From an uncultured Candidatus Saccharibacteria bacterium (GTDB taxonomy: Bacteria > Patescibacteriota > Minisyncoccia > Phycocordibacterales > SW-6-46-9), in NCBI GenBank assembly GCA_964534365.1, contig CAZHOI010000001.1, positions 188,171-252,170 of the forward strand: a stretch of 64,000 nucleotides of DNA, read 5' to 3'. The notes beneath the pieces were generated by a model. That model saw nothing but the letters and a program-made list of their open reading frames with translations. It was not told where the DNA came from and did not search any database. Positions 3,154 to 58,551 of this stretch are shown one piece after another; the first letter of the stretch is position 1; the number at the start of each line of letters is the position of its first letter. Position numbers and translations under genes: made by a program.

Positions 3154-3647
3154 ATACCGAACAAAAAGGTTTTAAGTACGTCATAGACACTAATTACTTA
3201 ATAGGTTTTTCAATATGGCTACCAGTGACTTATAATGAAAATTTTTGGAATAATCTTGAAATTTTGGTAGAGAGTGGAAAAGTACTAATTTTAGACGTAG
3301 TAGCTAATGAGGTTACACGTAAAGGTGACCTAAAAACATGGTGCAAGAAGTTAAAACAAAAAAATCTTTTAACTTCAATTGAAAACACCGACAGAAATAG
3401 AGCTATTGAAATAAACAATCTTTACCCAATGATTGATGAAACCTCAGGAAATTCAGAGGTTGATACATACATAGTTGCTTTTTCTGAAAGGACTTCTCAC
3501 ACATTACTGAGTAGAGAGGCTCCAAGGAAATCAAGTAACGTTCCGTTCAAAATTCCAGATGTATGTAATAAATTAAATATCAACACAATACGGTGGCCTG
3601 AAGATTTTTATAGTATCTTCCCCGAGTTATTTAGTACGTGCAATTAG
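3150..3647 (+). CDS. DUF4411-family PIN-like predicted nuclease
   Basis: YVIDTNYLIGF...NFWNNLE...VLILDVVANEV...DLKTWCKK matches the DUF4411 pattern (IDTN...FW...V.eE...W); ATGA start/stop overlap with the upstream ImmA-fusion gene. Confidence 0.7.
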   Translation: MNTEQKGFKYVIDTNYLIGFSIWLPVTYNENFWNNLEILVESGKVLILDVVANEVTRKGDLKTWCKKLKQKNLLTSIENTDRNRAIEINNLYPMIDETSGNSEVDTYIVAFSERTSHTLLSREAPRKSSNVPFKIPDVCNKLNINTIRWPEDFYSIFPELFSTCN

Positions 3648-4150
3648 ATGCAAGCTTTAGCAATTTCACCATTTTGATAAACAAACAAATTTACTCGATT
3701 CCCACTTGGAATAGCTGACCTGGCACTATCTTTTAAAACTTGGCAATAACTATCAATGGCAACTTGGTTAGCTTGAGACATGACATAAGCTTCCACAATT
3801 ACACCATCATCGCCTTTCTTTACAATCACATTAGACCAACGACCTTCTGCCCAGCCGTCTAAATCTGCTTGTAGCTCATCGATATCAGCTTGAGTTATAG
3901 CAATAGTAGCAGGTGCAGTATTACTTACATTAGGCGGCAAATTAGTAGCTGATTGTGTGAGACTATCATCGCGAGAGTCGTTATTTGAAGCTAAGGTTAT
4001 TGATATAACAATCACTACAAAAATGAACCAAAGAATTGTTTTGATTGGATGTCTAGCAATATACGAGCGCTGACTTGAACCACAATTGGGACACTTAGTC
4101 GCTTTCTTGTTAATCTGCTCCTTACATTCTCTACATTCCTTAGTATCCAT
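3644..4150 (-). CDS. Zinc-ribbon membrane protein (N-terminal CxxC...CxxC, one TM helix, extracytoplasmic domain)
   Basis: MDTKECRECKEQINKKATKCPNCG followed by hydrophobic ILWFIFVVIVISITLA; convergent with the DUF4411 gene and sharing overlapping stop codons; the longer alternative start is at 4207. Confidence 0.5.
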   Translation of the reverse strand: MDTKECRECKEQINKKATKCPNCGSSQRSYIARHPIKTILWFIFVVIVISITLASNNDSRDDSLTQSATNLPPNVSNTAPATIAITQADIDELQADLDGWAEGRWSNVIVKKGDDGVIVEAYVMSQANQVAIDSYCQVLKDSARSAIPSGNRVNLFVYQNGEIAKACI

Positions 4151-4574
4151 AATTAAATTGTTAGTTAGTAACTGGTGTAAGGATTGTAGAAAGCACAAAA
4201 CCCGCAACCAGGTGAGCCGAAGCTCATACGACAGTTTCCCATCGCAACATTAGACACGCCCTGATTACGGGGTTTCTGTGTCTAATGATTTGCAACCATG
4301 CCGACTCTATCGAGGAGGGTTAGGTTGGTAGGTCTATTTTACACCAAAATTTGTCCACTATCCTTGGAACACACAAAAACTAGTTAGCAGGACATTAGCA
4401 GGATAAAGTCAATCTAGAGGACTATTTAAAAACACAAAACAGTAGAAGTAACAGAGAAAGTTTTTAATTTTATGTACCTATTCTTATATGGCAAAAATAA
4501 TAAATAATAGTAAAAAAACGGTAGGAAAACCATAAATACAGTTTTTAACTAAACTAACATGGTACATTTTACAT

Positions 4575-5240
4575 ATGAGTAAGAAACAGCCTTTGAGTAT
4601 TTACTTTGAGAAGCTAGTAGTGAAAAACCAATTTTTAGATGATTTGAAAGAGCTGAACAAATTTCATCAATCAAAACTCAGCCAATTTCAGTCAAATGAG
4701 TTACGGTCAATGTTTGCAGATATTGGTCGAGGTAGAGAATATTGGAGTAAAGTATTTATGATATGTTCTAAGTACGGATTAAATGTTAATCAATTCAAAA
4801 TCATAATATCTAAACTAGCCACTGAAAGTAATTATGATTACAAAGACGATTTAGCGCACATAAGCAACATTAAACTATTAGACTTACAATCTATAAAGAA
4901 AATAATAAAGAAAAAGTTCAATTACAGTAATGAAGCGACATATATTGAAAACGACTATCGGGCGTTTATCGGCCTAAGTAATAATACCACTAAAGCAGAG
5001 CTAATAGATTACATTGAAAAGAATTATCATTCTAAGATTAAACCTTTAATCAGTAATAAAAAAGTAAGCTTTAAAAATCTACAATTAGAAAGAAACAGTG
5101 AGTTAAAGAATTTTGTTTGGAAAAACCAAGATATGCCTCATAAGGAATTGGCTAAAAAAGTCAGTAAAAAGTTCAATAAGATTTGTACTCCTGGATATAT
5201 TTCAAAAATGCTTTCAAGATTAAGAAAACAACGTGATTGA
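4575..5240 (+). CDS. Hypothetical Lys-rich protein with C-terminal HTH-like segment
   Basis: 221-aa ORF; C-terminus HKELAKKVSKKFNKICTPGYISKMLSRLRK resembles an HTH; its stop overlaps the ATG of the downstream recombinase (ATGA). Confidence 0.55.
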   Translation: MSKKQPLSIYFEKLVVKNQFLDDLKELNKFHQSKLSQFQSNELRSMFADIGRGREYWSKVFMICSKYGLNVNQFKIIISKLATESNYDYKDDLAHISNIKLLDLQSIKKIIKKKFNYSNEATYIENDYRAFIGLSNNTTKAELIDYIEKNYHSKIKPLISNKKVSFKNLQLERNSELKNFVWKNQDMPHKELAKKVSKKFNKICTPGYISKMLSRLRKQRD

Positions 5241-37189: not shown

Positions 37190-38833
37190 CTATTCTTTGA
37201 TCAAAATTAGGGATTGATAAGGCTGCAAACAATCTAGATCATCCGGGATCAATTTAGTAGTAAAATCAGGATTTATAATCTGATATTTACTTAAATTGAT
37301 TCCCAAATTTTCTAATGATCGCTCGCTATTGGAGATGTTGCCCAATAGTAATACCTCATTGTGATTATCAGAATCAGTAAATCTCGAACCCAAGACTGCT
37401 ACTTCGCCTGTATCGATAAACTGATGCTCGCCGCCGAATATAGATTGATAAGTGCTGCGCATCCGACCCAAAAATTTTAACCAATTATAGGCCGAATCTC
37501 GATCAGCTTCGATCAGGTCTACTGTTCTTATCGGTTCGGATGGTTTGGGCAAATTGATTTTTTCAGGTAGTTTTTCAGCCCCGTATTCGCTAAATCCGTA
37601 AAATGGCTGCTGCTTGACCCAACCCATTGTTGTTCTGACTGACGCCCTTTCATCCAGATCAATATTATCAGCCAGACCAATTTCATCGCCATAAAATATC
37701 ACCGGTGAGCCGGGCAAGAAAAACAACACACTATAAATTGACTTCATTTTTGCCTCGTCATAGTCAAACAATGGCCCTAGACGTCGACTAATTCCCCGTC
37801 CGTAACTACGGGCTTTTTCTTCGGGATCAAAATGATCTAGCACTTCATCTTGTTCGTCATCAGATAATTTGCTGGTATTAAATTCGTCGTGATTACGGAT
37901 AAAATTAAACCAAACATTTTTGTCAGTAAATGGCATGTCTTGTAATGCATTAATAAACTGCTGCGTATTTTCGCGAACATATGCCAGTAGTAAATGTTGG
38001 TTGACGTAAAAGTTTAAATTACCGAAAATGCCGTATCCGTCGTGTTTTTCCAAATCCTTAAAATATTTTTTGAAAGCATCCAAATCTAGATCAGTCTCGC
38101 CGAAAAATAAAAATTGGCGATCATAGGTAGATTCCAGATCACGGTGAAGATCGGCAAAAAACTGGTGCCCGTCTTCGAAATTATCTTGCGCTGCCCCAAC
38201 CCGGTCGTAAAACATGTAATTAACCGCATCAATTCTAAATCCATCAGTTCCAAGCGAAGCCCAAAAATCAAAAATGTTTTTTATTTCATTATGAACGTCT
38301 GGATTACGCAAATTCAAATCTGGTTGGAAAGAATAGAAACTATGGTGATAATATCGGCCGGATCGCTCGTCAAATTGCCACGGACCGTGCTCGTCACCGG
38401 GAAAAGCCGCTCGCGAATCAGACTGGTAATCTGGCTGGTCACGCCAAATATAGTAATTGGAAAACTTGGATTTATCATTCATGCGCCCAGCCTGGAACCA
38501 ATGGTGGATATTAGAAGTATGATGAATCACCATATCGATGAACACTTTTATATCACGACTGTGTGCTTGCTCGATTAATTCAATATAGTCACTAAGGTCT
38601 CCTAGACGTGAGTCAACCGAAAAATAGTCAACAATATCATAACCATTATCGCGCCACTGCGACGGATAAAAGGGTAGCAACCAAATTGCCTTGACCCCCA
38701 TTGATTTCAAATAGTCTAGTTCCGAAATCACTCCCCCTATATCACCATACCCGTCAGCGTTCGAGTCCTTGAAATATTTGACATCAATTTGATAAACAAA
38801 TTCATTTTGCCACCTGTCGCGATTATTTGGCAT
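37190..38833 (-). CDS. GH13 alpha-amylase family glycoside hydrolase
   Basis: GH13 regions: GVKAIWLLPFYPS...DNGYDIVDY, GFRIDAVNY (catalytic Asp), GETD (Glu), FIRNHDE. Confidence 0.8.
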   Translation of the reverse strand: MPNNRDRWQNEFVYQIDVKYFKDSNADGYGDIGGVISELDYLKSMGVKAIWLLPFYPSQWRDNGYDIVDYFSVDSRLGDLSDYIELIEQAHSRDIKVFIDMVIHHTSNIHHWFQAGRMNDKSKFSNYYIWRDQPDYQSDSRAAFPGDEHGPWQFDERSGRYYHHSFYSFQPDLNLRNPDVHNEIKNIFDFWASLGTDGFRIDAVNYMFYDRVGAAQDNFEDGHQFFADLHRDLESTYDRQFLFFGETDLDLDAFKKYFKDLEKHDGYGIFGNLNFYVNQHLLLAYVRENTQQFINALQDMPFTDKNVWFNFIRNHDEFNTSKLSDDEQDEVLDHFDPEEKARSYGRGISRRLGPLFDYDEAKMKSIYSVLFFLPGSPVIFYGDEIGLADNIDLDERASVRTTMGWVKQQPFYGFSEYGAEKLPEKINLPKPSEPIRTVDLIEADRDSAYNWLKFLGRMRSTYQSIFGGEHQFIDTGEVAVLGSRFTDSDNHNEVLLLGNISNSERSLENLGINLSKYQIINPDFTTKLIPDDLDCLQPYQSLILIKE

Positions 38834-38835
38834 AA

Positions 38836-39042
38836 TTAACTTTTAGGATGCCATTGATCATTGTCCCCTTTTTCATATTTATTTTTTACCGCTGACCAGG
38901 CAGTCGCGTGCGCCCTGGATTCATCATCATATTGTTGTGCGGCGGAATTAAAGGCTTCTTTATAAATATCCTGCGCATGCGGAACATTTGACAGTGCATT
39001 TTGCACGTCATCGGGTAAGTCGTTTGTTGAGTTATAAGGCAT
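38836..39042 (-). CDS. ChaB-family small protein
   Basis: LPDDVQNALSNVPHAQDIYKEAFNSA...AWSAVKNKYEK matches ChaB. Confidence 0.6.
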   Translation of the reverse strand: MPYNSTNDLPDDVQNALSNVPHAQDIYKEAFNSAAQQYDDESRAHATAWSAVKNKYEKGDNDQWHPKS

Positions 39043-39909
39043 TAATCAAATTGTACAGAAATTTCAAACTGTATGCTAGCTAAATCTCTGATTTATGTTG
39101 TAATTATAAATTAATTACTTAAAATAGTACTAGCCTCGAGAAGTCCTCGAGCACGTACCTCACCCTCTCTCGCTCTGTCACCCATGAATACTAGCCTGAT
39201 CGCAGATTTGATCTGTAGACGCTCTAGACGTCAAACCCTACCCAGTAGGTTTGATCCAGATAAAATTCATGTCTTTGAAATTCTACCGATTGAACACAGT
39301 ATTCGGAGTTCTAGCTCTGGCACCAGATTTATCAGGTTCCGACTATGGATTCCCCATAGCAAATCTGTAGACAAAAGAGTCAAAATTCAACATTGCGACA
39401 ACGGCATTACCCCCGTCAACTTCTTTTTCACTCTAAATGGTACTGTTAGAGGAATGAACAGAATACAATTAATCGTTCCGTCTTTTGGCAGGACTTTCGT
39501 TGTGGCCATAAATAATGAGGTTATAGCCGAGCTACTTCACAATGGCTGAGGGCAGAGGGTGCAGCGCACATCAGCGTTGTACCCTCTTTTTATTAAAAAA
39601 ATTGGCCCGACGCTCCTACTACATGACGCAGTAAGATTGCCGGGCCCAGACAGTCTGTTTAGATCAGTGGTGGTAACCTTCCCCTAGATATAAAAAGAGT
39701 GACCTGAACAGACTGCCCCGTGGTGGTACCTGTTCGACCGTTGAGGGTCGAGGATTAGTATATATTAAAATGCTTAACTTCATTTGTCAAGTAACCATTG
39801 ATCTTTAATTCAATCCTTCACTAAGTGGATAAACTTGAAAAAATTCCATTATTTGTCCTATATTATATACAGACTCATTCGCTGGCCTTCCACCTAAACC
39901 CCTCCTGCC

Positions 39910-40377
39910 ATGTGCACGCTCACCGGAAAAGTTGGTTCATTCGGCCAAATACCTGTGGCCTCTCGTGACCAAGGATTGATTCTTGATTCACTTTCTTTTA
40001 AATCGTTTGGTTTTATCGCCCGATTATTAAAACAATTGGGTTATCATCTTTTGGACGATCGTGAAAACCCACTATACGCCGACCGCAAGCACGGCTGGCT
40101 ATATATTTATGGAGACAAAGAACCCTTGATTGGCATTACTTGTGACACCTTAAAGCTTAGTAATACAAGTAGCGTTGACGTGGTTGTTCTACAGTATCCA
40201 TCAATGGCACGTAAGCCTCATTTAGTTTACGTCAAAAGCCAGTCCGTTGTATTGCAACCTTTCTCGATACCTGGACACGAAATTAGCCTGGTTGAAAAAG
40301 GTCGTAAAGTAGCATCCTATCCTCACCGAACACTATACTTGCCCAGTGATTTGCAGAGGGTGGAGTATCATGACTAA
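39910..40377 (+). CDS. Hypothetical protein
   Basis: 155-aa ORF followed by a strong terminator. Confidence 0.45.
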   Translation: MCTLTGKVGSFGQIPVASRDQGLILDSLSFKSFGFIARLLKQLGYHLLDDRENPLYADRKHGWLYIYGDKEPLIGITCDTLKLSNTSSVDVVVLQYPSMARKPHLVYVKSQSVVLQPFSIPGHEISLVEKGRKVASYPHRTLYLPSDLQRVEYHD

Positions 40378-40393
40378 ATAGGTAACCCACCAC

Positions 40394-40437
40394 ACTCCGC
40401 CTTGACAATTAATATTCAAGGCGGAGTTCTTTTTTTC
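40394..40437 (+). terminator. Rho-independent terminator
   Basis: ACTCCGCCTTG-loop-CAAGGCGGAGT followed by TCTTTTTTT. Confidence 0.7.
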
Positions 40438-40493
40438 ATAAAAATAACCCCTGGCAGCAATCAAACTGCAACAGGGGTCTTAATTTGAGACCA

Positions 40494-40889
40494 TTACGCC
40501 TCTTCCATATATACCACAAATTTTTTTCCAATTGTTTGTGGTCCGATCAAAGGCAGCTCTTTTGGATTCACAAACCAGAGTCTTGATTTTTTGAACCAAG
40601 AAATCCAAAGACGTTGCCACCAACTCATGTTTCTAGTGAGTTGATGATAATACTTTTTACGGTACCAAAAATAGATACCCTGTGCTGCCTTGAAATAATC
40701 ACCTAGATTATTTGGCCTAGGTCTGACTCTTCCAAGCATTACTTCTGTGTTATCAAGTTCAGCTACAATTACATGCCCAGTTAAGTTAGATGATTTCGTA
40801 TGTAGTAAACTGATATATTTTGAAGCAGTATCAATTTTAACAGTTATTGTATGTTTTACTTTTTGTGAAGCCTTAGAGGAGATTAGCAT
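40494..40889 (-). CDS. Hypothetical basic protein
   Basis: 131-aa ORF; hairpin CCCCTGGCAG...CTGCAACAGGGG lies downstream on the minus strand. Confidence 0.4.
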   Translation of the reverse strand: MLISSKASQKVKHTITVKIDTASKYISLLHTKSSNLTGHVIVAELDNTEVMLGRVRPRPNNLGDYFKAAQGIYFWYRKKYYHQLTRNMSWWQRLWISWFKKSRLWFVNPKELPLIGPQTIGKKFVVYMEEA

Positions 40890-40999
40890 GCCTTTATTGG
40901 CTAGTGAGAAGGAACGACTAGATGCAAGCTTAACTAAAAATACACCCCTTTTGCAAGTGATTGTTATCAGCCGTGGTTTTAAAAACTAGATTCTATTGA

Positions 41000-41713
41000 T
41001 TAAACAATTGGGCGTATCTTGATATAGCGATTTTTCCACGATCGCAGGAATTGATCGGTGTCCAGGGTTCGATTACCAGACAGCTCGGCCGGGTCACTAT
41101 AGGTAATGGTATTATCATCATTAACCGCCGAAATCACCACCAAATGTGGAATCGGATTAGCGGGGTCAAACGTATAATGGACCGATGCCATAACTGGTCC
41201 GTTTTCCAGCTCGACCGCTAGATCATTCAGAGCTTGTTGTTTGTCAGCTGACAACCAAACTGTTTCGCCATCTAGACCATGTTCATTAGCCAGCGCTATT
41301 AATCCTGCATGCGACCATCCAACCGCGTCATTAAATGCCCCGGCTGCTAGACCACGCTGCAGCAAATCATCTGGTGTAACGGGATCAGTAAAGTAATCAA
41401 TCAACATTGCCAAACTAGCCACCCCACAGCTAACCCCGCGCCACTCTGCTGCGGTGATATCACTAAATTGCGAATAAAATGGTACGGAAGAAATTTCAAT
41501 ACCCTTATCTATGGCGGCGTTTAAAGTTTGATCAAATGACAATTCGTCAACAAAAGGTTGCGCCTCGGCATTCGGTTGCAATAATGCAGCAGCTTGATAA
41601 TTAGTAGCCAAATATAAACCAGCCACATTTGTCAGGGCAATTGAACCTAGCAAAAATCCGGATACCGCACCTCGTTTTTTTAATTTTCGAACCCCCAAAT
41701 TGGTGTTTCGCAT
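41000..41713 (-). CDS. Secreted papain-like (C39-like) cysteine peptidase domain protein
   Basis: N-terminal signal/TM; GVSCGVASLAMLIDYF contains the catalytic-Cys context of the Peptidase_C39-like family. Confidence 0.6.
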   Translation of the reverse strand: MRNTNLGVRKLKKRGAVSGFLLGSIALTNVAGLYLATNYQAAALLQPNAEAQPFVDELSFDQTLNAAIDKGIEISSVPFYSQFSDITAAEWRGVSCGVASLAMLIDYFTDPVTPDDLLQRGLAAGAFNDAVGWSHAGLIALANEHGLDGETVWLSADKQQALNDLAVELENGPVMASVHYTFDPANPIPHLVVISAVNDDNTITYSDPAELSGNRTLDTDQFLRSWKNRYIKIRPIV

Positions 41714-41773
41714 TTAGTTTACACTACCACAAATTGGGGTATTGACGTCTAGTATATATTATTATTTAATATA

Positions 41774-42712
41774 TTAATCTTGTACTACTACTTTGGTTCC
41801 CAACACTGCCCAATCGTATAGTTTCTTGGCATCTTCGGGTCGTAAATTTACACAGCCATGTGATTCACGTGATCCAAATTCATTATGCCAATAGGCCCCG
41901 TGTATTACTGCTCCATCATAGGTAAAATACAAATCCCATGGCACCCCTGGTAAGTCATATTCATCGGTTAATCCTGAACCTGGAATTGGACCCTGCATGT
42001 AGCGTGTAGGCATTTTTTTAAACACTTCAAATTCACCAACCCTGGTTGGCGATAGTTCTTCACCAGTCGATACTACTACTTTCATAAACTCGGCATCGCC
42101 TTGATAAGCGGTCAGGGTCTGATCTGATCGATCAATCACAATCTTTTTATCGGTTTGTTTGGCTCCATCTTCCCATTCAGTTACCGGCTTTTCTTCTATA
42201 AATTGTCGTACATACGGGGCTGCCACCCATTGCTCGGACTCGACTCTTTCTGGGTAATATAGTTTTTGATTGTCAAAGGATACCCGATACCAATCCATAC
42301 CATCCTCTGATTTAGCTGTTTCTACCACCCTTAATACCATGCCGGTTCGATACCGATCAACAATAGCAAAATCCGATCCGGGTCCAGAACGAACATTCAA
42401 ACAATCGTTCTGGAAGTTATAATCACAACCATCAATCACCTCGATATAAACTCCTTCATCTTCAGGGGTTTCTGGTATCGAGGCGGTAGTGTCAAACCTA
42501 TCATCACGAGAATTGATTGTATTAAACCGCGCATTATTTTCTGTTTCATTAGATAAAGCTTGGTTAACCTGGACTTCACTGCTATTAGCTAGTTGAGAAG
42601 TTGCAGACGTATTAGCAACCGTGTTTGTTTCATTACTAAATACACCAAATCCAACAACTGCTATAGCTGCCACTACTAATAATCCGGGTCCAAAAAATTT
42701 ATTCATGTTCAT
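41774..42712 (-). CDS. L,D-transpeptidase (YkuD) with SH3b-like domain
   Basis: Catalytic motif SHGCVNLR; signal peptide. Confidence 0.8.
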   Translation of the reverse strand: MNMNKFFGPGLLVVAAIAVVGFGVFSNETNTVANTSATSQLANSSEVQVNQALSNETENNARFNTINSRDDRFDTTASIPETPEDEGVYIEVIDGCDYNFQNDCLNVRSGPGSDFAIVDRYRTGMVLRVVETAKSEDGMDWYRVSFDNQKLYYPERVESEQWVAAPYVRQFIEEKPVTEWEDGAKQTDKKIVIDRSDQTLTAYQGDAEFMKVVVSTGEELSPTRVGEFEVFKKMPTRYMQGPIPGSGLTDEYDLPGVPWDLYFTYDGAVIHGAYWHNEFGSRESHGCVNLRPEDAKKLYDWAVLGTKVVVQD

Positions 42713-42759
42713 TACCTTAATATAACAAAAATGTACCTATTGTACAAACTGGCAAAATG

Positions 42760-43110
42760 CTATCGATTTTGGTGCCATTTGGTCAACAATAACTTGGCAG
42801 CTAGCTGCGCCCGAACTGCCATAATCTGATTTTCACTATTTTGCAGCTGCAGCAGTTTTTGCAACAAATCTTGACCGGCCTGGCCTCCTTGAATAGGAAT
42901 CATCCGTGGATCATTGTCTTCAATTCGAATAACCTCCTTTTCACCATCATCCTGCAATCCCTCGGCCCCATCACCAATACCACAATCAGTATCAGCACAA
43001 TAAACTGGTTGCCCGTTAACATATCCATCTGGTTGAGGGGTTTGCGCACTAGCAGTAAATCCAAACGATAGGATAGTAAAAGCTAGTAACAATGTAGTAA
43101 TCATTTTCAT
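42760..43110 (-). CDS. Small secreted hypothetical protein
   Basis: Signal peptide MKMITTLLLAFTILSFGFTASA. Confidence 0.45.
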   Translation of the reverse strand: MKMITTLLLAFTILSFGFTASAQTPQPDGYVNGQPVYCADTDCGIGDGAEGLQDDGEKEVIRIEDNDPRMIPIQGGQAGQDLLQKLLQLQNSENQIMAVRAQLAAKLLLTKWHQNR

Positions 43111-43235: not shown

Positions 43236-43742
43236 ATGCGTTTGCGCATCCCCGATCCTCAAGTAGCCCTAGATTCAATTCCAACCAAATCAATTCTCCC
43301 TCACTTTCCCGGCTGTAGCAGAATTGAAAGTCGCGGCGGTTTACGATTTAGCTTAGATCAACATGCCGTAGCTGCTTTGCAAGGACTAGACCAGCGACCC
43401 GTGACCAAGCCTATTGTTTGGCTGACGTTTTTTCAAATCAACCTTCAGGGTGAACAAGCTCTGATGGTTATTGGGAAAGTCAGCTACCTTCAAAATGGCC
43501 AGCAAAAAGAACAAGTTGCCCTGCCAACCAAACCCACTCGGTTGACCATGGGTGACTTGCGTCAAAAGCTGGGACCAAAGCATACTGCGGCGATTAGTGG
43601 GTTGCTGTCACGAGACACTAGCTACCAAATATCGCTAGGAGGAAACGGTCAGCTAAACCAGAGGCGAATCAGTGTGATCATAGATCCGCCTAGCTACGAG
43701 CAGAAGCAAATAGAGCTTGACTACAAGCTCGGCTCTAGCTAA
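43236..43742 (+). CDS. Hypothetical protein in a GC-enriched atypical segment
   Basis: 168-aa ORF with GC-rich codon usage unlike its neighbours; a terminator follows. Confidence 0.4.
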   Translation: MRLRIPDPQVALDSIPTKSILPHFPGCSRIESRGGLRFSLDQHAVAALQGLDQRPVTKPIVWLTFFQINLQGEQALMVIGKVSYLQNGQQKEQVALPTKPTRLTMGDLRQKLGPKHTAAISGLLSRDTSYQISLGGNGQLNQRRISVIIDPPSYEQKQIELDYKLGSS

Positions 43743-43859: not shown

Positions 43860-44081
43860 ATGCAGTCTCTCAGACTTGATCCGGGACAAGAACTTCCATT
43901 CGACAGAGGAATTTTGATGGGACAACCTGACGGTCGGATTTCGTTAACAACTGTGTACGGCGCCACCGTTGCCAACCGCCCGGCTGATAGCCTGGTTCTG
44001 GACCTGACTGAAACCGGTTCTTTTACCCTTGTTGGCTTGCCAGGTTATGAGCAGCCATACAACCTGGGCAATTTGTCCTAA
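43860..44081 (+). CDS. Hypothetical small protein, GC-enriched
   Basis: 73-aa ORF between two terminators. Confidence 0.35.
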   Translation: MQSLRLDPGQELPFDRGILMGQPDGRISLTTVYGATVANRPADSLVLDLTETGSFTLVGLPGYEQPYNLGNLS

Positions 44082-44082
44082 A

Positions 44083-45037: not shown

Positions 45038-45393
45038 TATATAAATATTATACACGTATAAATACAAAAACCCCTGGGTTTCCTAGCAAAGTCAGCAGGC
45101 AGCACAATCGGCTTGCGACTAACTTGGCTAGAATACCAAAGGAGTTTGTGGAAGTGCATTGCTGCACCGTGCTTTAACCGGGTCCTCTCCCTGGTCTTTC
45201 AACCATAACCCAATCAAACTTAGCAACCGTCCCACGGGTTGAACACGGTCAAGGTTTCCGGGGGGTTAAACCTTGACTCCAGCTATAATTTATAGTTATT
45301 TAACTGGTTTTGCAACCATATTAGTAACTTTAAAAACCATTTGAAAGTGGTTTTTAAAGGCTTATTTTGCTTTTATAACTCTAGTAAGAGCTA

Positions 45394-45852
45394 TTATTCA
45401 GCCGGAATTACCAATTTCTGACCCGGATAAATCTCATCAGGATCTTTCAGCATTGGCCGATTAGCCTCGAATATTTGTGGGTATTTGCTGGCATCACCAT
45501 ATACTTCGGCAGCAATACCGGACAAGGTATCGCCTGATTGAACCTCGTAATAGCGAACTCGATCATCTGCAACTTCATTATCATTATCATCAACTACTTG
45601 GATCAGATCGTTTACTCGCTCGACGCCTTCAATATTTCCGATTGTTGCCACAATTCGCTTGCGCTCCAGCATACTGTCAACTTGGCCCTGGACCGTTACC
45701 GTATCATCGCCATCGAATACTGCTTTTATGTCATTGGTTCGCAAATTAAAGTTCTGCAAATGCTGGTAAACTGCATTGGCCTTTTCCTCGGCCGAGGCCT
45801 CGCGTCCGAATAATTTCTTGCCCGCGCCCTTTATGAAATCTAGTAGTGCCAT
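45394..45852 (-). CDS. BON + LysM domain protein (Kbp/YgaU-like)
   Basis: C-terminal LysM (YYEVQSGDTLSGIAAEVYGDASKYPQIFEANRPML) and central BON-like segment. Confidence 0.75.
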   Translation of the reverse strand: MALLDFIKGAGKKLFGREASAEEKANAVYQHLQNFNLRTNDIKAVFDGDDTVTVQGQVDSMLERKRIVATIGNIEGVERVNDLIQVVDDNDNEVADDRVRYYEVQSGDTLSGIAAEVYGDASKYPQIFEANRPMLKDPDEIYPGQKLVIPAE

Positions 45853-47908: not shown

Positions 47909-50002
47909 TTATTCTGCGTCGTCTGCGTCGTAATCTACGTCTTCATCTAGAACAATGTAGTCAAAGACTCCATCGTCAGAATCAGTACCTCGACTTGAGT
48001 TTGGAGTACCGTCGCCAGTTTCGCCTTCATTTTCAGAAGTGTACTGAATTGCTTCAATTCGCACGTCAGCATCGCCTTCATCATCGGCACCAGAGAATCG
48101 GAACTCTAGTTCGAACTCTTCGCTGTTACCAGCGTCAACTACGTAGAACTCTTCACCATCAATAGTAACGGTGTCAAGATCTGAGTCGTTTTCTACTTCA
48201 GCTGAAGTAAGAGTGGCTCCAGTAGCAAGAGTAATTTCGTACAAGAACCCGTCATCTGAGGTTTGAGGGCCACCATCAACGTAAGTTCCTGTTTGACTTA
48301 CAGTTAGGCTGGTTGGGATTAGAACATCCTCACCGTCTTCTGAAGCCATAACTTCAATAGTGAATTCTTCACGTGCGTCACCTTCGTTTGAGTCTTCTAG
48401 AGAAGCGTCAATTGCAAAGATAGATAGGGTGTGTTCTTCACCGTTTACAGTACCGGTATCAATATCGGCACCGTCAGGACCATCAGCGTCTAGATTAGTT
48501 AGATCGAATGAAACCATTTGACCATTTTCATAGTCTTCAGCAGCTTCGAATTCTACCCGTACTGACATTTGTACTTCTTCGTCTTCTAGATCGTATTCGT
48601 CATCGAATTCAAATCGTGCAGTGTACTCACGATCATCACCAGAAACAGTTGGGGTTGCTGAGACTAATTCATAGTCGTCATAAGTTTCCCCATCGATGTC
48701 AATTTCTAGATCAGAAACAACTTCGTCAAAAGTTACGTCAGCAGCATCTGCATCAAATAGAGTCACTACTACATCAATACCTTCTAGTTCGAACATGCCA
48801 TCTTCAGCTTCAACATCAGCAACAGTAACCATGTACCATTCTGATTCGTCGTCAGCATCAACAGCAATGGTTGATTCGTCTGGATTTTCTGAAGCTTCAG
48901 ACAAGTCAAGTTCAGCATCATCGCCTTCTTCAACTACTTCAAAGTCAGCAGTGTCAGAACCTGATGAGTATTGTTGAATTCCTTCTGAGTCTTCGCCGCG
49001 GACAGCACGATCTTCAACAGATAGTCTCCATTGTGCATCACCGTCTTCGGCACCATCAACATTGTTGTTGGCGGTAATCCAAATTTCGATTTCTACGTCT
49101 TCATCTTCACGAACCACGTAGTCTAGACCTGATACACGGAATTCACCGTCATCTTCATCTAGGTATTCGTCTTCGTCAGATAGATCAAAATCTTCTAATT
49201 CGTCACCGTCAACTGCTAAAGTCAAAGTGTCGAATACTTCCCATGGCTCATCTTCGGCGTCAGTGCTTGAAGTTGGGCCAACGTATTCTAGTGTGAAGTC
49301 GATTCGGTTAACTTCTACGTCACCGTCTTCGACATCGAATTCAAGAGTGGCAACATGTACCATCTCGCCTTCTTCTGCATCGTCTTCTTCATCTAGTTCA
49401 ACGTCGCCGATTTCAGCTTCGCCGCCTGATAGACGATCATCGTCATCATCCATGTCATCGTCATCATCCATGTCGTCATCGTCGTCTCCGCCGTTGTCAA
49501 CAGGAGGTTGAGGAGCAGGCATAGTCATGTCAGCACACATTTCGCGTACCGCATCACGTGAACCAGCGCCAAAATATCCAGTTCCAGATACAAGACCTAG
49601 AGGGGTAAGGATAGTAGCTGCATTAGCTTCTTGGAAGCGAGTTACTGCATTAGCAGTCAATGAACCATAGTACATTGTTTCCATGCCAGGTGATCCAGCG
49701 CCAGTTGCGGCAACTTGGAATCCAGCATCGTTTAGGAACTCTTGTAAATTCATTACATCAGCTCCTTGTGAACCTCGTGAAAGGTCACGTAGGTAGTCAA
49801 CGTCACAACCGCGATTCGATGAAGAAACAGTAGTTGTGGTAGTTGTTCCACCTAGTAGAGACATGAACAAGGCAACTTCTGTGTCTGATAGACCAGCAGC
49901 GCGTAGTTCAGCCTCTGAAATACTTTGAGCGTCAACCAAGCCAGGACTAAAGAATAGAACCATAGCTAGGGTTAACAACCCAGTAAATACTTTATTAAGC
50001 AT
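47909..50002 (-). CDS. Secreted protein with N-terminal peptidoglycan-binding-like domain and a very long D/E-rich acidic region
   Basis: Signal peptide; GADVMNLQEFLNDAGF...YYGSLTANAVTRFQEANA resembles PG_binding_1; ~500 aa of acidic low complexity. Confidence 0.65.
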   Translation of the reverse strand: MLNKVFTGLLTLAMVLFFSPGLVDAQSISEAELRAAGLSDTEVALFMSLLGGTTTTTTVSSSNRGCDVDYLRDLSRGSQGADVMNLQEFLNDAGFQVAATGAGSPGMETMYYGSLTANAVTRFQEANAATILTPLGLVSGTGYFGAGSRDAVREMCADMTMPAPQPPVDNGGDDDDDMDDDDDMDDDDDRLSGGEAEIGDVELDEEDDAEEGEMVHVATLEFDVEDGDVEVNRIDFTLEYVGPTSSTDAEDEPWEVFDTLTLAVDGDELEDFDLSDEDEYLDEDDGEFRVSGLDYVVREDEDVEIEIWITANNNVDGAEDGDAQWRLSVEDRAVRGEDSEGIQQYSSGSDTADFEVVEEGDDAELDLSEASENPDESTIAVDADDESEWYMVTVADVEAEDGMFELEGIDVVVTLFDADAADVTFDEVVSDLEIDIDGETYDDYELVSATPTVSGDDREYTARFEFDDEYDLEDEEVQMSVRVEFEAAEDYENGQMVSFDLTNLDADGPDGADIDTGTVNGEEHTLSIFAIDASLEDSNEGDAREEFTIEVMASEDGEDVLIPTSLTVSQTGTYVDGGPQTSDDGFLYEITLATGATLTSAEVENDSDLDTVTIDGEEFYVVDAGNSEEFELEFRFSGADDEGDADVRIEAIQYTSENEGETGDGTPNSSRGTDSDDGVFDYIVLDEDVDYDADDAE

Positions 50003-50180
50003 TATTAATTGTTTTGTGTCTGACTATTAGCCAGAGCACATATTTATTGGTAATAGTAATTAGTTAACAGCATTAAAGGCACAAGCCCTTCTGAAACTAA
50101 TTACTGTTTAATCTTTTAATAAGATTTGGTAATTTGTCAGCACTTTCAGCCAACCTGTTTTTTTTGAAGTCAAGCTTCAA

Positions 50181-50489
50181 ACGCAGTGGCTGGCACCTTT
50201 GGTGCCTGTCACTTTAGTGAAGAAGCCTGTCTTTTTCCAGCCGCGCGAGGCTAGAAAGATACGGGTCGTTAAGGTAACACCGACCATAGGTCAATGTCAC
50301 CGCACTCCCCCAATCTTAATAGGTTGGCGATTCGTCGGCCAAAATCTAGTTAAAGATTAAAGCCATGGAATGACAAACCGCCAAACCAAATAGTTTTTGA
50401 CGTTTTTTCGGTATTTTGTTAACTAGCCCTGCTCGCTAAAGTGGCAGGCACCCTAGGATTTATGAATAAATCCAGATGAGCCAGCCACT
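50181..50489. repeat. Long-range imperfect inverted repeat (~37-nt arms) enclosing ~215 bp; MITE-like element or structured ncRNA
   Basis: 50181-50217 GCAGTGGCTGGCACCTTTGGTGCCTGTCACTTTAGTG is complementary to 50432-50450 plus 50478-50489; a minus-strand terminator-like hairpin and T-run lie at 50152-50178. Confidence 0.5.
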
Positions 50490-51031
50490 GCGCTCGCTAT
50501 ATAGCCAATTAAACCTTTGTCAAAGAGCTAACTGGTTTGGCGGCAGATTAATATCTGTAGCACCAACCAATTAAGGATTGGATCAATCTGATCCGGTTAG
50601 GGAGACCAATAGTTGATATTAGTCCCCCTATGCGATTCAGTTGTTTTCTTTAGTTATTTATCTTTAGTTATTTATTGGGCCTATTTTGCTGGGCCGATAC
50701 TAGTGGTGACGAGAATAGATAGATTTGATTACGTTGACAAAATTAATAATTCGTTATTTTAACTATATGATATTTTGTACAATTTGGCAAAGTTCAGGAC
50801 TTGATTAGATTAAATGCTTGATCCAATAATAGTCAGCCGAACTACCAATACCTATAGATTACCTTATCAACAGCCAAACATTAGTTAGCTGGTCTAACCC
50901 TGGGGATAATTGAGTTATTAATTCAAGGCTGATATCAAATAATAACTCAGTAATTAGGAAAAACTAGGAAATCAGGGCATTTTAGCAATATCAATAATCA
51001 AATATAGAGTTTTCTTAAAGGGATATTATTA

Positions 51032-57972: not shown

Positions 57973-58455
57973 CTATTCTTCATTTTCTTCTGTTTTTTGC
58001 TCCGTTTTTGGTTCCGTATTATCCTCGCCTTCTGATTCTTCATCGTCTGATTCGTCTTCAAACTCTTCTTCATCAGGGTTATATTCGTCAGTCAAGGTTG
58101 TAACAAAATCCTCGCGAGTGGTTTTAATAATTAAAAACCTGATAATTGATTTGTTAGCCTTGATAGTTGATTCTAAGTCGCTAATTAATTCTGGATCTTG
58201 TTTGAATTTAATCCAATTGAAATAAGCATCTTTATAATCCCGGCGTTTACCTTCAGTTTTAACGGTGATCTCATAAGCCAGATTACGCAATCTGGGTTCA
58301 CCACTAGAAAGCACCGCGCCGGATCCCTGAGCGACCGTGTCGCCCAATGAAGTGAATAGTTTGTCCACTTTGTCTTCGGAAAGCTTGGGGTCGACCAGAG
58401 TTGCTAGTTCATAGACCACCAGCTTGGAATCCTGGTTTTGGTTATTTTCTGTCAT
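57973..58455 (-). CDS. rpsF: 30S ribosomal protein S6 with acidic C-terminal tail
   Basis: S6-like core (VVYELATLVDP...RLRNLAYEI...); conserved rpsF-ssb-rpsR order; start taken at MTENN (58455) because the ORF-track start lies inside the repeat. Confidence 0.8.
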   Translation of the reverse strand: MTENNQNQDSKLVVYELATLVDPKLSEDKVDKLFTSLGDTVAQGSGAVLSSGEPRLRNLAYEITVKTEGKRRDYKDAYFNWIKFKQDPELISDLESTIKANKSIIRFLIIKTTREDFVTTLTDEYNPDEEEFEDESDDEESEGEDNTEPKTEQKTEENEE

Positions 58456-58474
58456 AACTCGCCGATTGTAACAT

Positions 58475-58551
58475 GTCATCCGTCATCCGTCATCCGTCAT
58501 CCGTCATCCGTCATCTGTCATCCGTCATCTGTCATCTGTCATCTGTCATCT
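58475..58551. repeat. Heptanucleotide tandem repeat (GTCATCC/GTCATCT) x 11
   Basis: Eleven perfect 7-mer units read directly from the sequence, between the tatD stop and the rpsF start. Confidence 0.9.

Follow-up and report, generated by a model that had tools for sequence, protein, structure and literature searches.

The question raised by this locus is what occupies the 867-bp gap (39043–39909) between chaB on the left and a 155-codon ORF (o155) on the right, within a stretch of DNA of 64,000 nt referred to here as the window. A sequence-only reading had taken some 700 bp of this gap (39100–39800) for a GC-enriched, non-coding segment with several perfect hairpins and a terminator, and had proposed a non-coding RNA or decayed foreign DNA. 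We find that the segment is better read as two small putative transcription units than as one GC-rich structured RNA, the gap resolving into two convergent units whose terminators lie back to back. Unit 1, on the plus strand (approximately 39132–39595), would give rise to an mRNA-like transcript, and unit 2, on the minus strand (approximately 39755–39595), to a non-coding RNA of about 160 nt; the two would be transcribed independently, with their intrinsic terminators meeting at 39588–39603. This model, in which an orphan mRNA-like unit faces an opposite-strand structured sRNA candidate within a variable island, is the best supported, and we assign it a probability of about one half. The features concerned are, from left to right:

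38836–39042, minus strand: chaB (Pfam ChaB, E 4e-22).
39098–39125, plus strand: promoter-like site TTGTAA-16-TAAAAT, 9/12 match; predicted start near 39132.
39132–39183, plus strand: putative leader of 52 nt, with a CUCGAG/CUCGAG hairpin followed by a C-rich, G-poor tract (CACGUACCUCACCCUCUCUCGCUCUGUCACCC).
39184–39549, plus strand: orphan ORF o121, 121 aa, ATG to TGA.
39554–39595, plus strand: intrinsic terminator of the plus unit, 14-bp stem and 6-nt loop, then UUUUUAUU.
39595–39646, minus strand: intrinsic terminator of the minus unit, hairpin 39646 to 39604, then AAUUUUUUU (39603 to 39595).
39649–39717, minus strand: predicted long hairpin, 12-bp basal stem (CAGUCUGUUCAG.../...CUAAACAGACUG) and internal loops, z −3.9.
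39667–39730, minus strand: two (G)GU(U)ACCACCAC copies, 53 nt apart, located from sequence and fold.
39734–39751, minus strand: predicted 5' hairpin UCGACC-CUCAAC-GGUCGA, 6 bp.
39762–39790, minus strand: promoter-like site TTGACA-17-TAATAT, 10/12 match with a perfect −35 box; predicted start near 39755.
39910–40377, plus strand: o155, the 155-codon orphan ORF to the right of the gap.

The helices, repeats and terminator listed from the letters alone were all recovered, by reading and with tools, within about 2 nt of where they had been placed. They include the helices CTATGG-ATTCC-CCATAG (39344–39360) and GGCCCG...CGGGCC (39604–39646), the pairing of CAGTCTGTT (39651–39659) with AACAGACTG (39707–39715), and the terminator hairpin at 39554–39587 followed by TTTTTATT. 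Two direct repeats were also confirmed: ATCTGTAGAC (39211 and 39363; 0.11 copies expected) and GTGGTGGTA (39667 and 39720; 0.35 expected), each with its only two copies in the 64-kb window. Not every hairpin is perfect, since TCAAACCCTAC/GTAGGTTTGA (39231–39254) carries a 1-nt bulge. The GC enrichment is slight: 0.434 for 39100–39800 against a window mean of 0.404, which is only the 80th percentile of 700-nt windows. This value lies at the upper end for intergenic DNA here (other gaps, 0.24–0.43), but adjacent genes reach 0.49.

Fold z-scores were calculated against dinucleotide shuffles on both strands in sliding 160-nt windows. While flanking coding DNA gives values near 0, positions 39440–39599 score −5.6 on the plus strand and −0.9 on the minus strand, and positions 39600–39759 score −6.4 on the minus strand and −1.8 on the plus strand. 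The body of the ORF, in which strong helices had been claimed, folds at chance level: z is −1.7 for 39132–39424 (11 of 200 shuffles fold as well) and −1.4 for 39425–39552 (18 of 200). Outside the two terminators, only 39647–39757 is significantly structured, and there on the minus strand. The picture of one GC-rich structured element is thus unsupported; the structure is localized and divided between the strands.

The hairpin at 39554–39587 has a folding energy of −26.1 kcal/mol on the plus strand (z −7.6) and of −18.2 kcal/mol on the minus strand, where it is 8 kcal/mol weaker, and only on the plus strand does a U-run follow it. For the hairpin at 39604–39646 the opposite holds (minus strand, −30.0 kcal/mol and z −6.4; plus strand, −16.9 kcal/mol and z −2.6), with a U7 tract following it on the minus strand only. 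Stems of 8 and 9 bp flank a 2x2 internal loop in this hairpin; since several of its pairs are G-U, it loses 13 kcal/mol on the plus strand. Since each hairpin has its U-run and its greater stability on its own strand, the two are back-to-back convergent intrinsic terminators; both show the marks of a Rho-independent terminator, a stable G+C-rich hairpin with a U-run directly behind it on the strand that is transcribed. As in other convergent pairs, two strand-specific G+C-rich hairpins with U-runs of their own share a common A/T spacer (39588–39603), and nothing in this ordinary bacterial architecture is unusual. By number alone such sites are not raised in the region, which has 2 terminator-like sites against 1.6 in shuffles and 4 promoter-like sites against 5.6. 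A second pair of the same kind, serving o155(+) and o131(−), lies at 40390–40480 with z of about −5 on both strands.

No family, with RNase P, tmRNA, SRP, 6S, T-box, riboswitches and ROOL/GOLLD/OLE among those covered, was matched in a scan of 39000–40000 with Rfam 15 at gathering thresholds; signatures of the first four had not been seen by eye either. Within the gap there was likewise no family match at E≤10, isrK, s2m and the other best sub-threshold candidates reaching 16–18 bits where 50–56 are required, and ARAGORN found neither a tRNA nor a tmRNA there. Comparison of the gap and of o121 with phages and plasmids (blastn, tblastn) gave no match, so that no parent of a diverged pseudogene was found; viral contigs contained no relative of either unit, and when the gap was compared by tblastx with 2.7 Mb of fetched loci and with the remaining window sequence, nothing came up. 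Among 5.8 billion proteins o121 has no homolog but itself, and a scan of JGI metagenomes with it returned nothing. An exhaustive HMMER search gave the protein itself and tandem-repeat artefacts only. The latter (P0133–P0137), rejected as homologs, appear to be translated tandem-repeat DNA in which one chance 14-aa match is multiplied by up to 37 repeats, inflating the score to a spurious E of 7e-74. The search with o155 gave self-matches only. There were no Pfam, PHROG or PADLOC matches for o121, o155 or o131, and a search of PDB gave nothing for the orphan ORFs.

The four retrievable copies of the segment are 100% identical and hold no variation informative for covariation or dN/dS. Closer relatives were sought through the neighboring genes. 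A scan of genomes with the GH13 gene gave nothing, its cluster mate being the same strain; ChaB aligned with genome representatives of many phyla at no more than 71% identity; the Kbp-like protein matched metagenomes at no more than 47% over its full length, with two partial matches at 56% and one of 27 residues at 63%; and relatives of the C39 peptidase (at most 66% identical) have contexts without the orphan part. Homologs of this peptidase carry the names Kaiserbacteria or Parcubacteria at NCBI, and several ChaB matches are Saccharimonadia MAGs, so that the host is probably a member of the Patescibacteria/CPR.

The closest syntenic relative retrieved (loci L005/L006) has a ChaB which is 85% identical, and retains homologs of YqeY, DUF389, the Kbp-like protein and o116 in order. 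In L005, chaB lies 7 nt from the homolog of window ORF 42760–43110, and positions 39043–42759 of the window therefore constitute a 3.7-kb lineage-specific island. It carries the two units, o155, o131, a C39-like peptidase and a YkuD L,D-transpeptidase, and was presumably inserted between chaB and its ancestral upstream neighbor. The island, which corresponds to L005 5993–6001, splits an o116–chaB operon that is contiguous in the relative, and the GH13 gene (37190–38833) is likewise missing from L005. Elsewhere the YkuD–C39 pair is conserved while the orphan part is missing; in a distant relative (L089 5739–8118) this module is found a few kb from an RVT_1 reverse transcriptase and a bAvd-like gene, a region resembling a diversity-generating retroelement. 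Neither terminal repeats nor an integrase or transposase gene were found at the island flanks. A mobile element, MITE or integron cassette was rejected, there being no flanking repeats, no mobility domains in the neighbors and no tandem array; a TIGR array was also rejected.

Nearly all genes of the window are without a Shine-Dalgarno site, and many have a TGnTAnAAT/TATAAT −10 box ending 5–8 nt before the ATG, which indicates leaderless-type starts. Against this background the orphan units stand out in the genome by their long C-rich leaders. An alternative code with TGA as a sense codon was rejected, since it would lengthen ORFs by a few codons only and TGA serves as the stop of 4 of 52 genes; the standard code applies.

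These observations bear upon the second half of the original proposal, that the segment is inert debris: foreign DNA, recently acquired or decaying, with leftover terminators, a relic ORF and no function in the host. The island is indeed missing from the closest relative, its orphan ORFs match no known family (nor, for o121 and o155, any homolog), the codons of o121 are atypical or non-coding-like and its TGA stop is rare, and the leaders do not resemble the leaderless-type starts that host genes have. On the other hand, no donor or parent sequence was recognized at the DNA or translated level, and the flanks bear no mark of a mobile element. Moreover, the promoters, terminators and ORF are intact and neatly tiled, with convergent terminators and divergent promoters, which would be unexpected under decay. 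We consider debris somewhat unlikely, and retain the two-unit model.

The plus-strand unit presents the greater difficulty. Its promoter-like site alone is not above the shuffle count and is weaker than that of the minus unit, and the leader of o121 lacks a Shine-Dalgarno site. Nevertheless, in a segment described as non-coding, the frame is open from 39115 to 39549, that is, over the whole predicted unit from the putative start to the terminator, which begins 5 nt past the o121 stop codon. An ORF of at least 121 codons arises in only 0.4–1.1% of dinucleotide shuffles (p = 0.004–0.011). The impression that the ORF looks non-coding is borne out by its composition, if not by this improbable length and its exact fit to the unit. 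The codon log-odds score of −0.11 to −0.12 falls below those of all 33 large genes in two models (at least 0.03 in the first, at least −0.04 in the second) and inside the range of shadow ORFs read out of frame (mean −0.19, sd 0.12). GC content is even over the three codon positions (GC1/2/3 of.43/.40/.40 vs.51/.36/.35), and the stop codon is TGA, as in the few genes mentioned above. Single-sequence AF2 models have a pLDDT of 52 for o121 and 40 for o155, too low for a fold search, and JGI gene calling passed over o121 in two identical copies. In short, length and match to the unit speak for a coding sequence; host-like codons, GC periodicity and a homolog or fold are lacking.

One might prefer, as the sequence-only reading did, to regard 39132–39595 as a non-coding RNA of about 460 nt with a fortuitous 121-codon ORF. 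The shadow-like codon score, flat GC1/2/3, lack of a Shine-Dalgarno site, lack of a protein homolog even by exhaustive HMMER and the omission by gene calling all suit this explanation, as does a fold z of −4.6 for the whole unit. That value, however, comes nearly entirely from the terminator, the two parts of the ORF body contributing only the chance-level folds given above. The absence of an Rfam match and the open frame spanning the whole unit also count against it, as do two sister units. These, 39910–40377 (o155) and 43236–43742 (o168), are laid out in the same way (promoter, hairpin, C-rich leader, ORF, terminator), and their ORFs show GC1>GC2 and borderline-coding codon scores. We judge a plus-strand non-coding RNA to be unlikely. 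Within the two-unit model the odds that o121 is translated are about even; if it is, the product would be a small, basic, beta-rich protein, with initiation perhaps occurring from the unstructured pyrimidine leader by a Shine-Dalgarno-independent route of the ribosomal protein S1 type.

The ORFs at 39910–40377(+), 43236–43742(+) and 43860–44082(+), of 155, 168 and 73 aa, have no family matches; each is followed by a strong terminator, and their codon scores are borderline (0.01–0.08). The first two have C-rich leaders of 40–60 nt without a Shine-Dalgarno site. At the position equivalent to o168, L005 (5030–5603, on the minus strand of that locus) contains an uncalled ORF of 123 codons; a hairpin and a C-rich leader (...CCACCACCCCCUCUCUCCC-GTG) come before it and a terminator after it. 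The two ORFs are without significant similarity (z 1.9) and alike in the style of their leaders. Pairwise tests among the orphan ORFs revealed no similarity.

Phage "moron"-like and other accessory cassettes are autonomous units of promoter, ORF and terminator having an atypical composition. Similarly, o121, o155 and o168 are self-contained from promoter-like site to strong terminator, are atypical in codon use and leaders, and lie in a strain- or lineage-variable island. Unlike such cassettes, they have no prophage context, PHROG match or related viral contig, and their GC deviates only slightly from that of the host.

The minus-strand unit is a well-formed candidate small RNA gene. The suggestion of a non-coding RNA holds for the right-hand quarter of the segment only (approximately 39595–39757), and on the strand opposite to the one described. 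Its candidacy there is based upon a promoter-like site, the lack of an ORF, strand-specific stability and an intrinsic terminator. Set beside the promoters of the window's own genes, the site TTGACA-17-TAATAT (39790 to 39762) is one of the best sigma-70-like matches. A transcript running from its predicted start near 39755 to the U-run near 39595 would measure about 160 nt, and this stretch contains no ATG-, GTG- or TTG-initiated ORF beyond 1 codon. The 171-nt minus-strand region folds with −67.1 kcal/mol (z −6.1), a value reached by none of 200 shuffles, against z −2.0 on the plus strand; without the terminator the body (39647–39757) retains z −3.5. A promoter-like site of its own, no ORF, stable structure and a terminator, the hallmarks of an sRNA gene, are thus all present.

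Along the predicted transcript the 5' hairpin is followed by a linker with UACCACCAC, the long hairpin with a second UACCACCAC, and the terminator. The plus-strand forms of this twin motif are GTGGTGGTAACC (39667–39678) and GTGGTGGTACC (39720–39730). In the predicted fold the 5' copy (GGUACCACCAC) sits in the single-stranded linker between the hairpins, and the other in the apical part of the long hairpin (39717 to 39649), as GGUUACCACCAC near its tip. The 5' copy of UACCACCAC is a putative seed or protein-binding motif. We would envisage a trans-acting regulatory sRNA using the repeated C-rich motif, which might pair with GUGGUGG-containing targets or bind a protein; a screen for sRNA-target duplexes gave nothing specific. 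A covariance model built for the minus-strand RNA retrieved no further copy from the window, from 46 bacterial loci or from 100 viral loci (about 1.5 Mb fetched), and the two-motif DNA pattern had only unrelated matches in viral contigs.

The RsaE/RoxS-type sRNAs of Firmicutes are trans-acting small RNAs with C-rich seed motifs. The candidate shares with them a stand-alone intergenic gene with a sigma-70-like promoter, a length of about 100–200 nt without an ORF, hairpins and a Rho-independent terminator, as well as a repeated C-rich motif exposed in a linker or loop. It differs in its motif, UACCACCAC instead of CCCC, and in having no sequence or structure match in Rfam; furthermore, RsaE/RoxS-type seeds usually target Shine-Dalgarno sites, which the genes of this host lack.

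Could the same stretch (39600–39760) instead be a plus-strand element, a 5' leader or riboswitch that controls ORF 39910? Its position upstream of o155 and the presence of GTGGTGGTACC might suggest something T-box-like, as GGTGGTACC seems close to the T-box core motif. The plus-strand fold is weak (z −2.0), however, and the 39604–39646 hairpin, 13 kcal/mol weaker on that strand, has no U-run downstream of it there. In addition, the stretch comes directly after the plus-strand terminator with no promoter found between, the promoter-like site of o155 (39835–39864) lies downstream of it, and neither the T-box (RF00230) nor any other riboswitch was matched at E≤10. A plus-strand leader is most improbable, and a T-box as such was rejected on the absence of an RF00230 match at E≤10, the weak plus-strand fold and the lack of any terminator following the motif on that strand. 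A type I toxin-antitoxin pair, in which the plus strand would yield a toxin mRNA and the minus strand an antisense sRNA converging on it, is barely credible: the neighboring 3' ends of a small ORF and of an sRNA facing it do recall par/Fst- or TxpA/RatA-type loci, but the predicted 3' ends merely abut (overlap of about 5 nt at most), no direct repeat would provide sRNA-mRNA complementarity, o121 at 121 aa is basic and not a short hydrophobic peptide, and there is no PADLOC or Pfam match.

The two-unit model leaves a plausible new sRNA candidate next to a doubtful orphan gene. The features are tidy but of known kinds, namely an sRNA gene, an orphan cassette and convergent terminators; both units are known from a single lineage, and the locus is a flagged candidate, not a discovery. 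There is an outside chance that more is involved: a new class of sRNA with twin UACCACCAC in a Patescibacteria/CPR-like bacterium, together with a distinct class of genes having C-rich leaders and no Shine-Dalgarno site (o121, o155, o168 and the L005 ORF), which would be fast-evolving accessory genes with a route of initiation unlike that of the leaderless bulk. To our knowledge hardly any work has been done on regulatory RNAs or accessory genes in ultra-small, uncultivated bacteria of the CPR-like kind. If verified, an sRNA whose seed is defined would offer rare access to post-transcriptional control in an organism with mostly leaderless mRNAs, and an orphan gene set with a distinct leader type would do the same.

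Elsewhere in the window several other sites are structured or odd. A 1029-nt gap (50003–51031) upstream of a 697-aa ORF (47909–50002, minus strand) has minus-strand folds with z of −3.4 to −6.3, and strong minus-strand folding in 160-nt windows is almost continuous from about 49950 to 50700. No credible Rfam match was found in this gap, the sole one being a sub-threshold mir-929-like hairpin (50576–50650). It may be a long structured leader or a non-coding RNA, perhaps of more interest than the main segment. Strong minus-strand structure (z −5.3 to −5.5) also occurs at 45240–45479, spanning the 3' end of the Kbp-like BON-LysM gene (45394–45852, minus strand) and the region just downstream. A tandem GGATGACG repeat at about 58480–58510 immediately precedes the start codon of ORF 57973–58479 (minus strand). 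Finally, a LOOT RNA (RF03000) is found at 4213–4326 on the minus strand, scoring 64.6 bits against a gathering threshold of 46.4. It lies within a 367-nt gap (4208–4574) between ORFs 3644–4150(−) and 4575–5240(+), and the match gives this little-characterised Rfam motif a defined genomic context.
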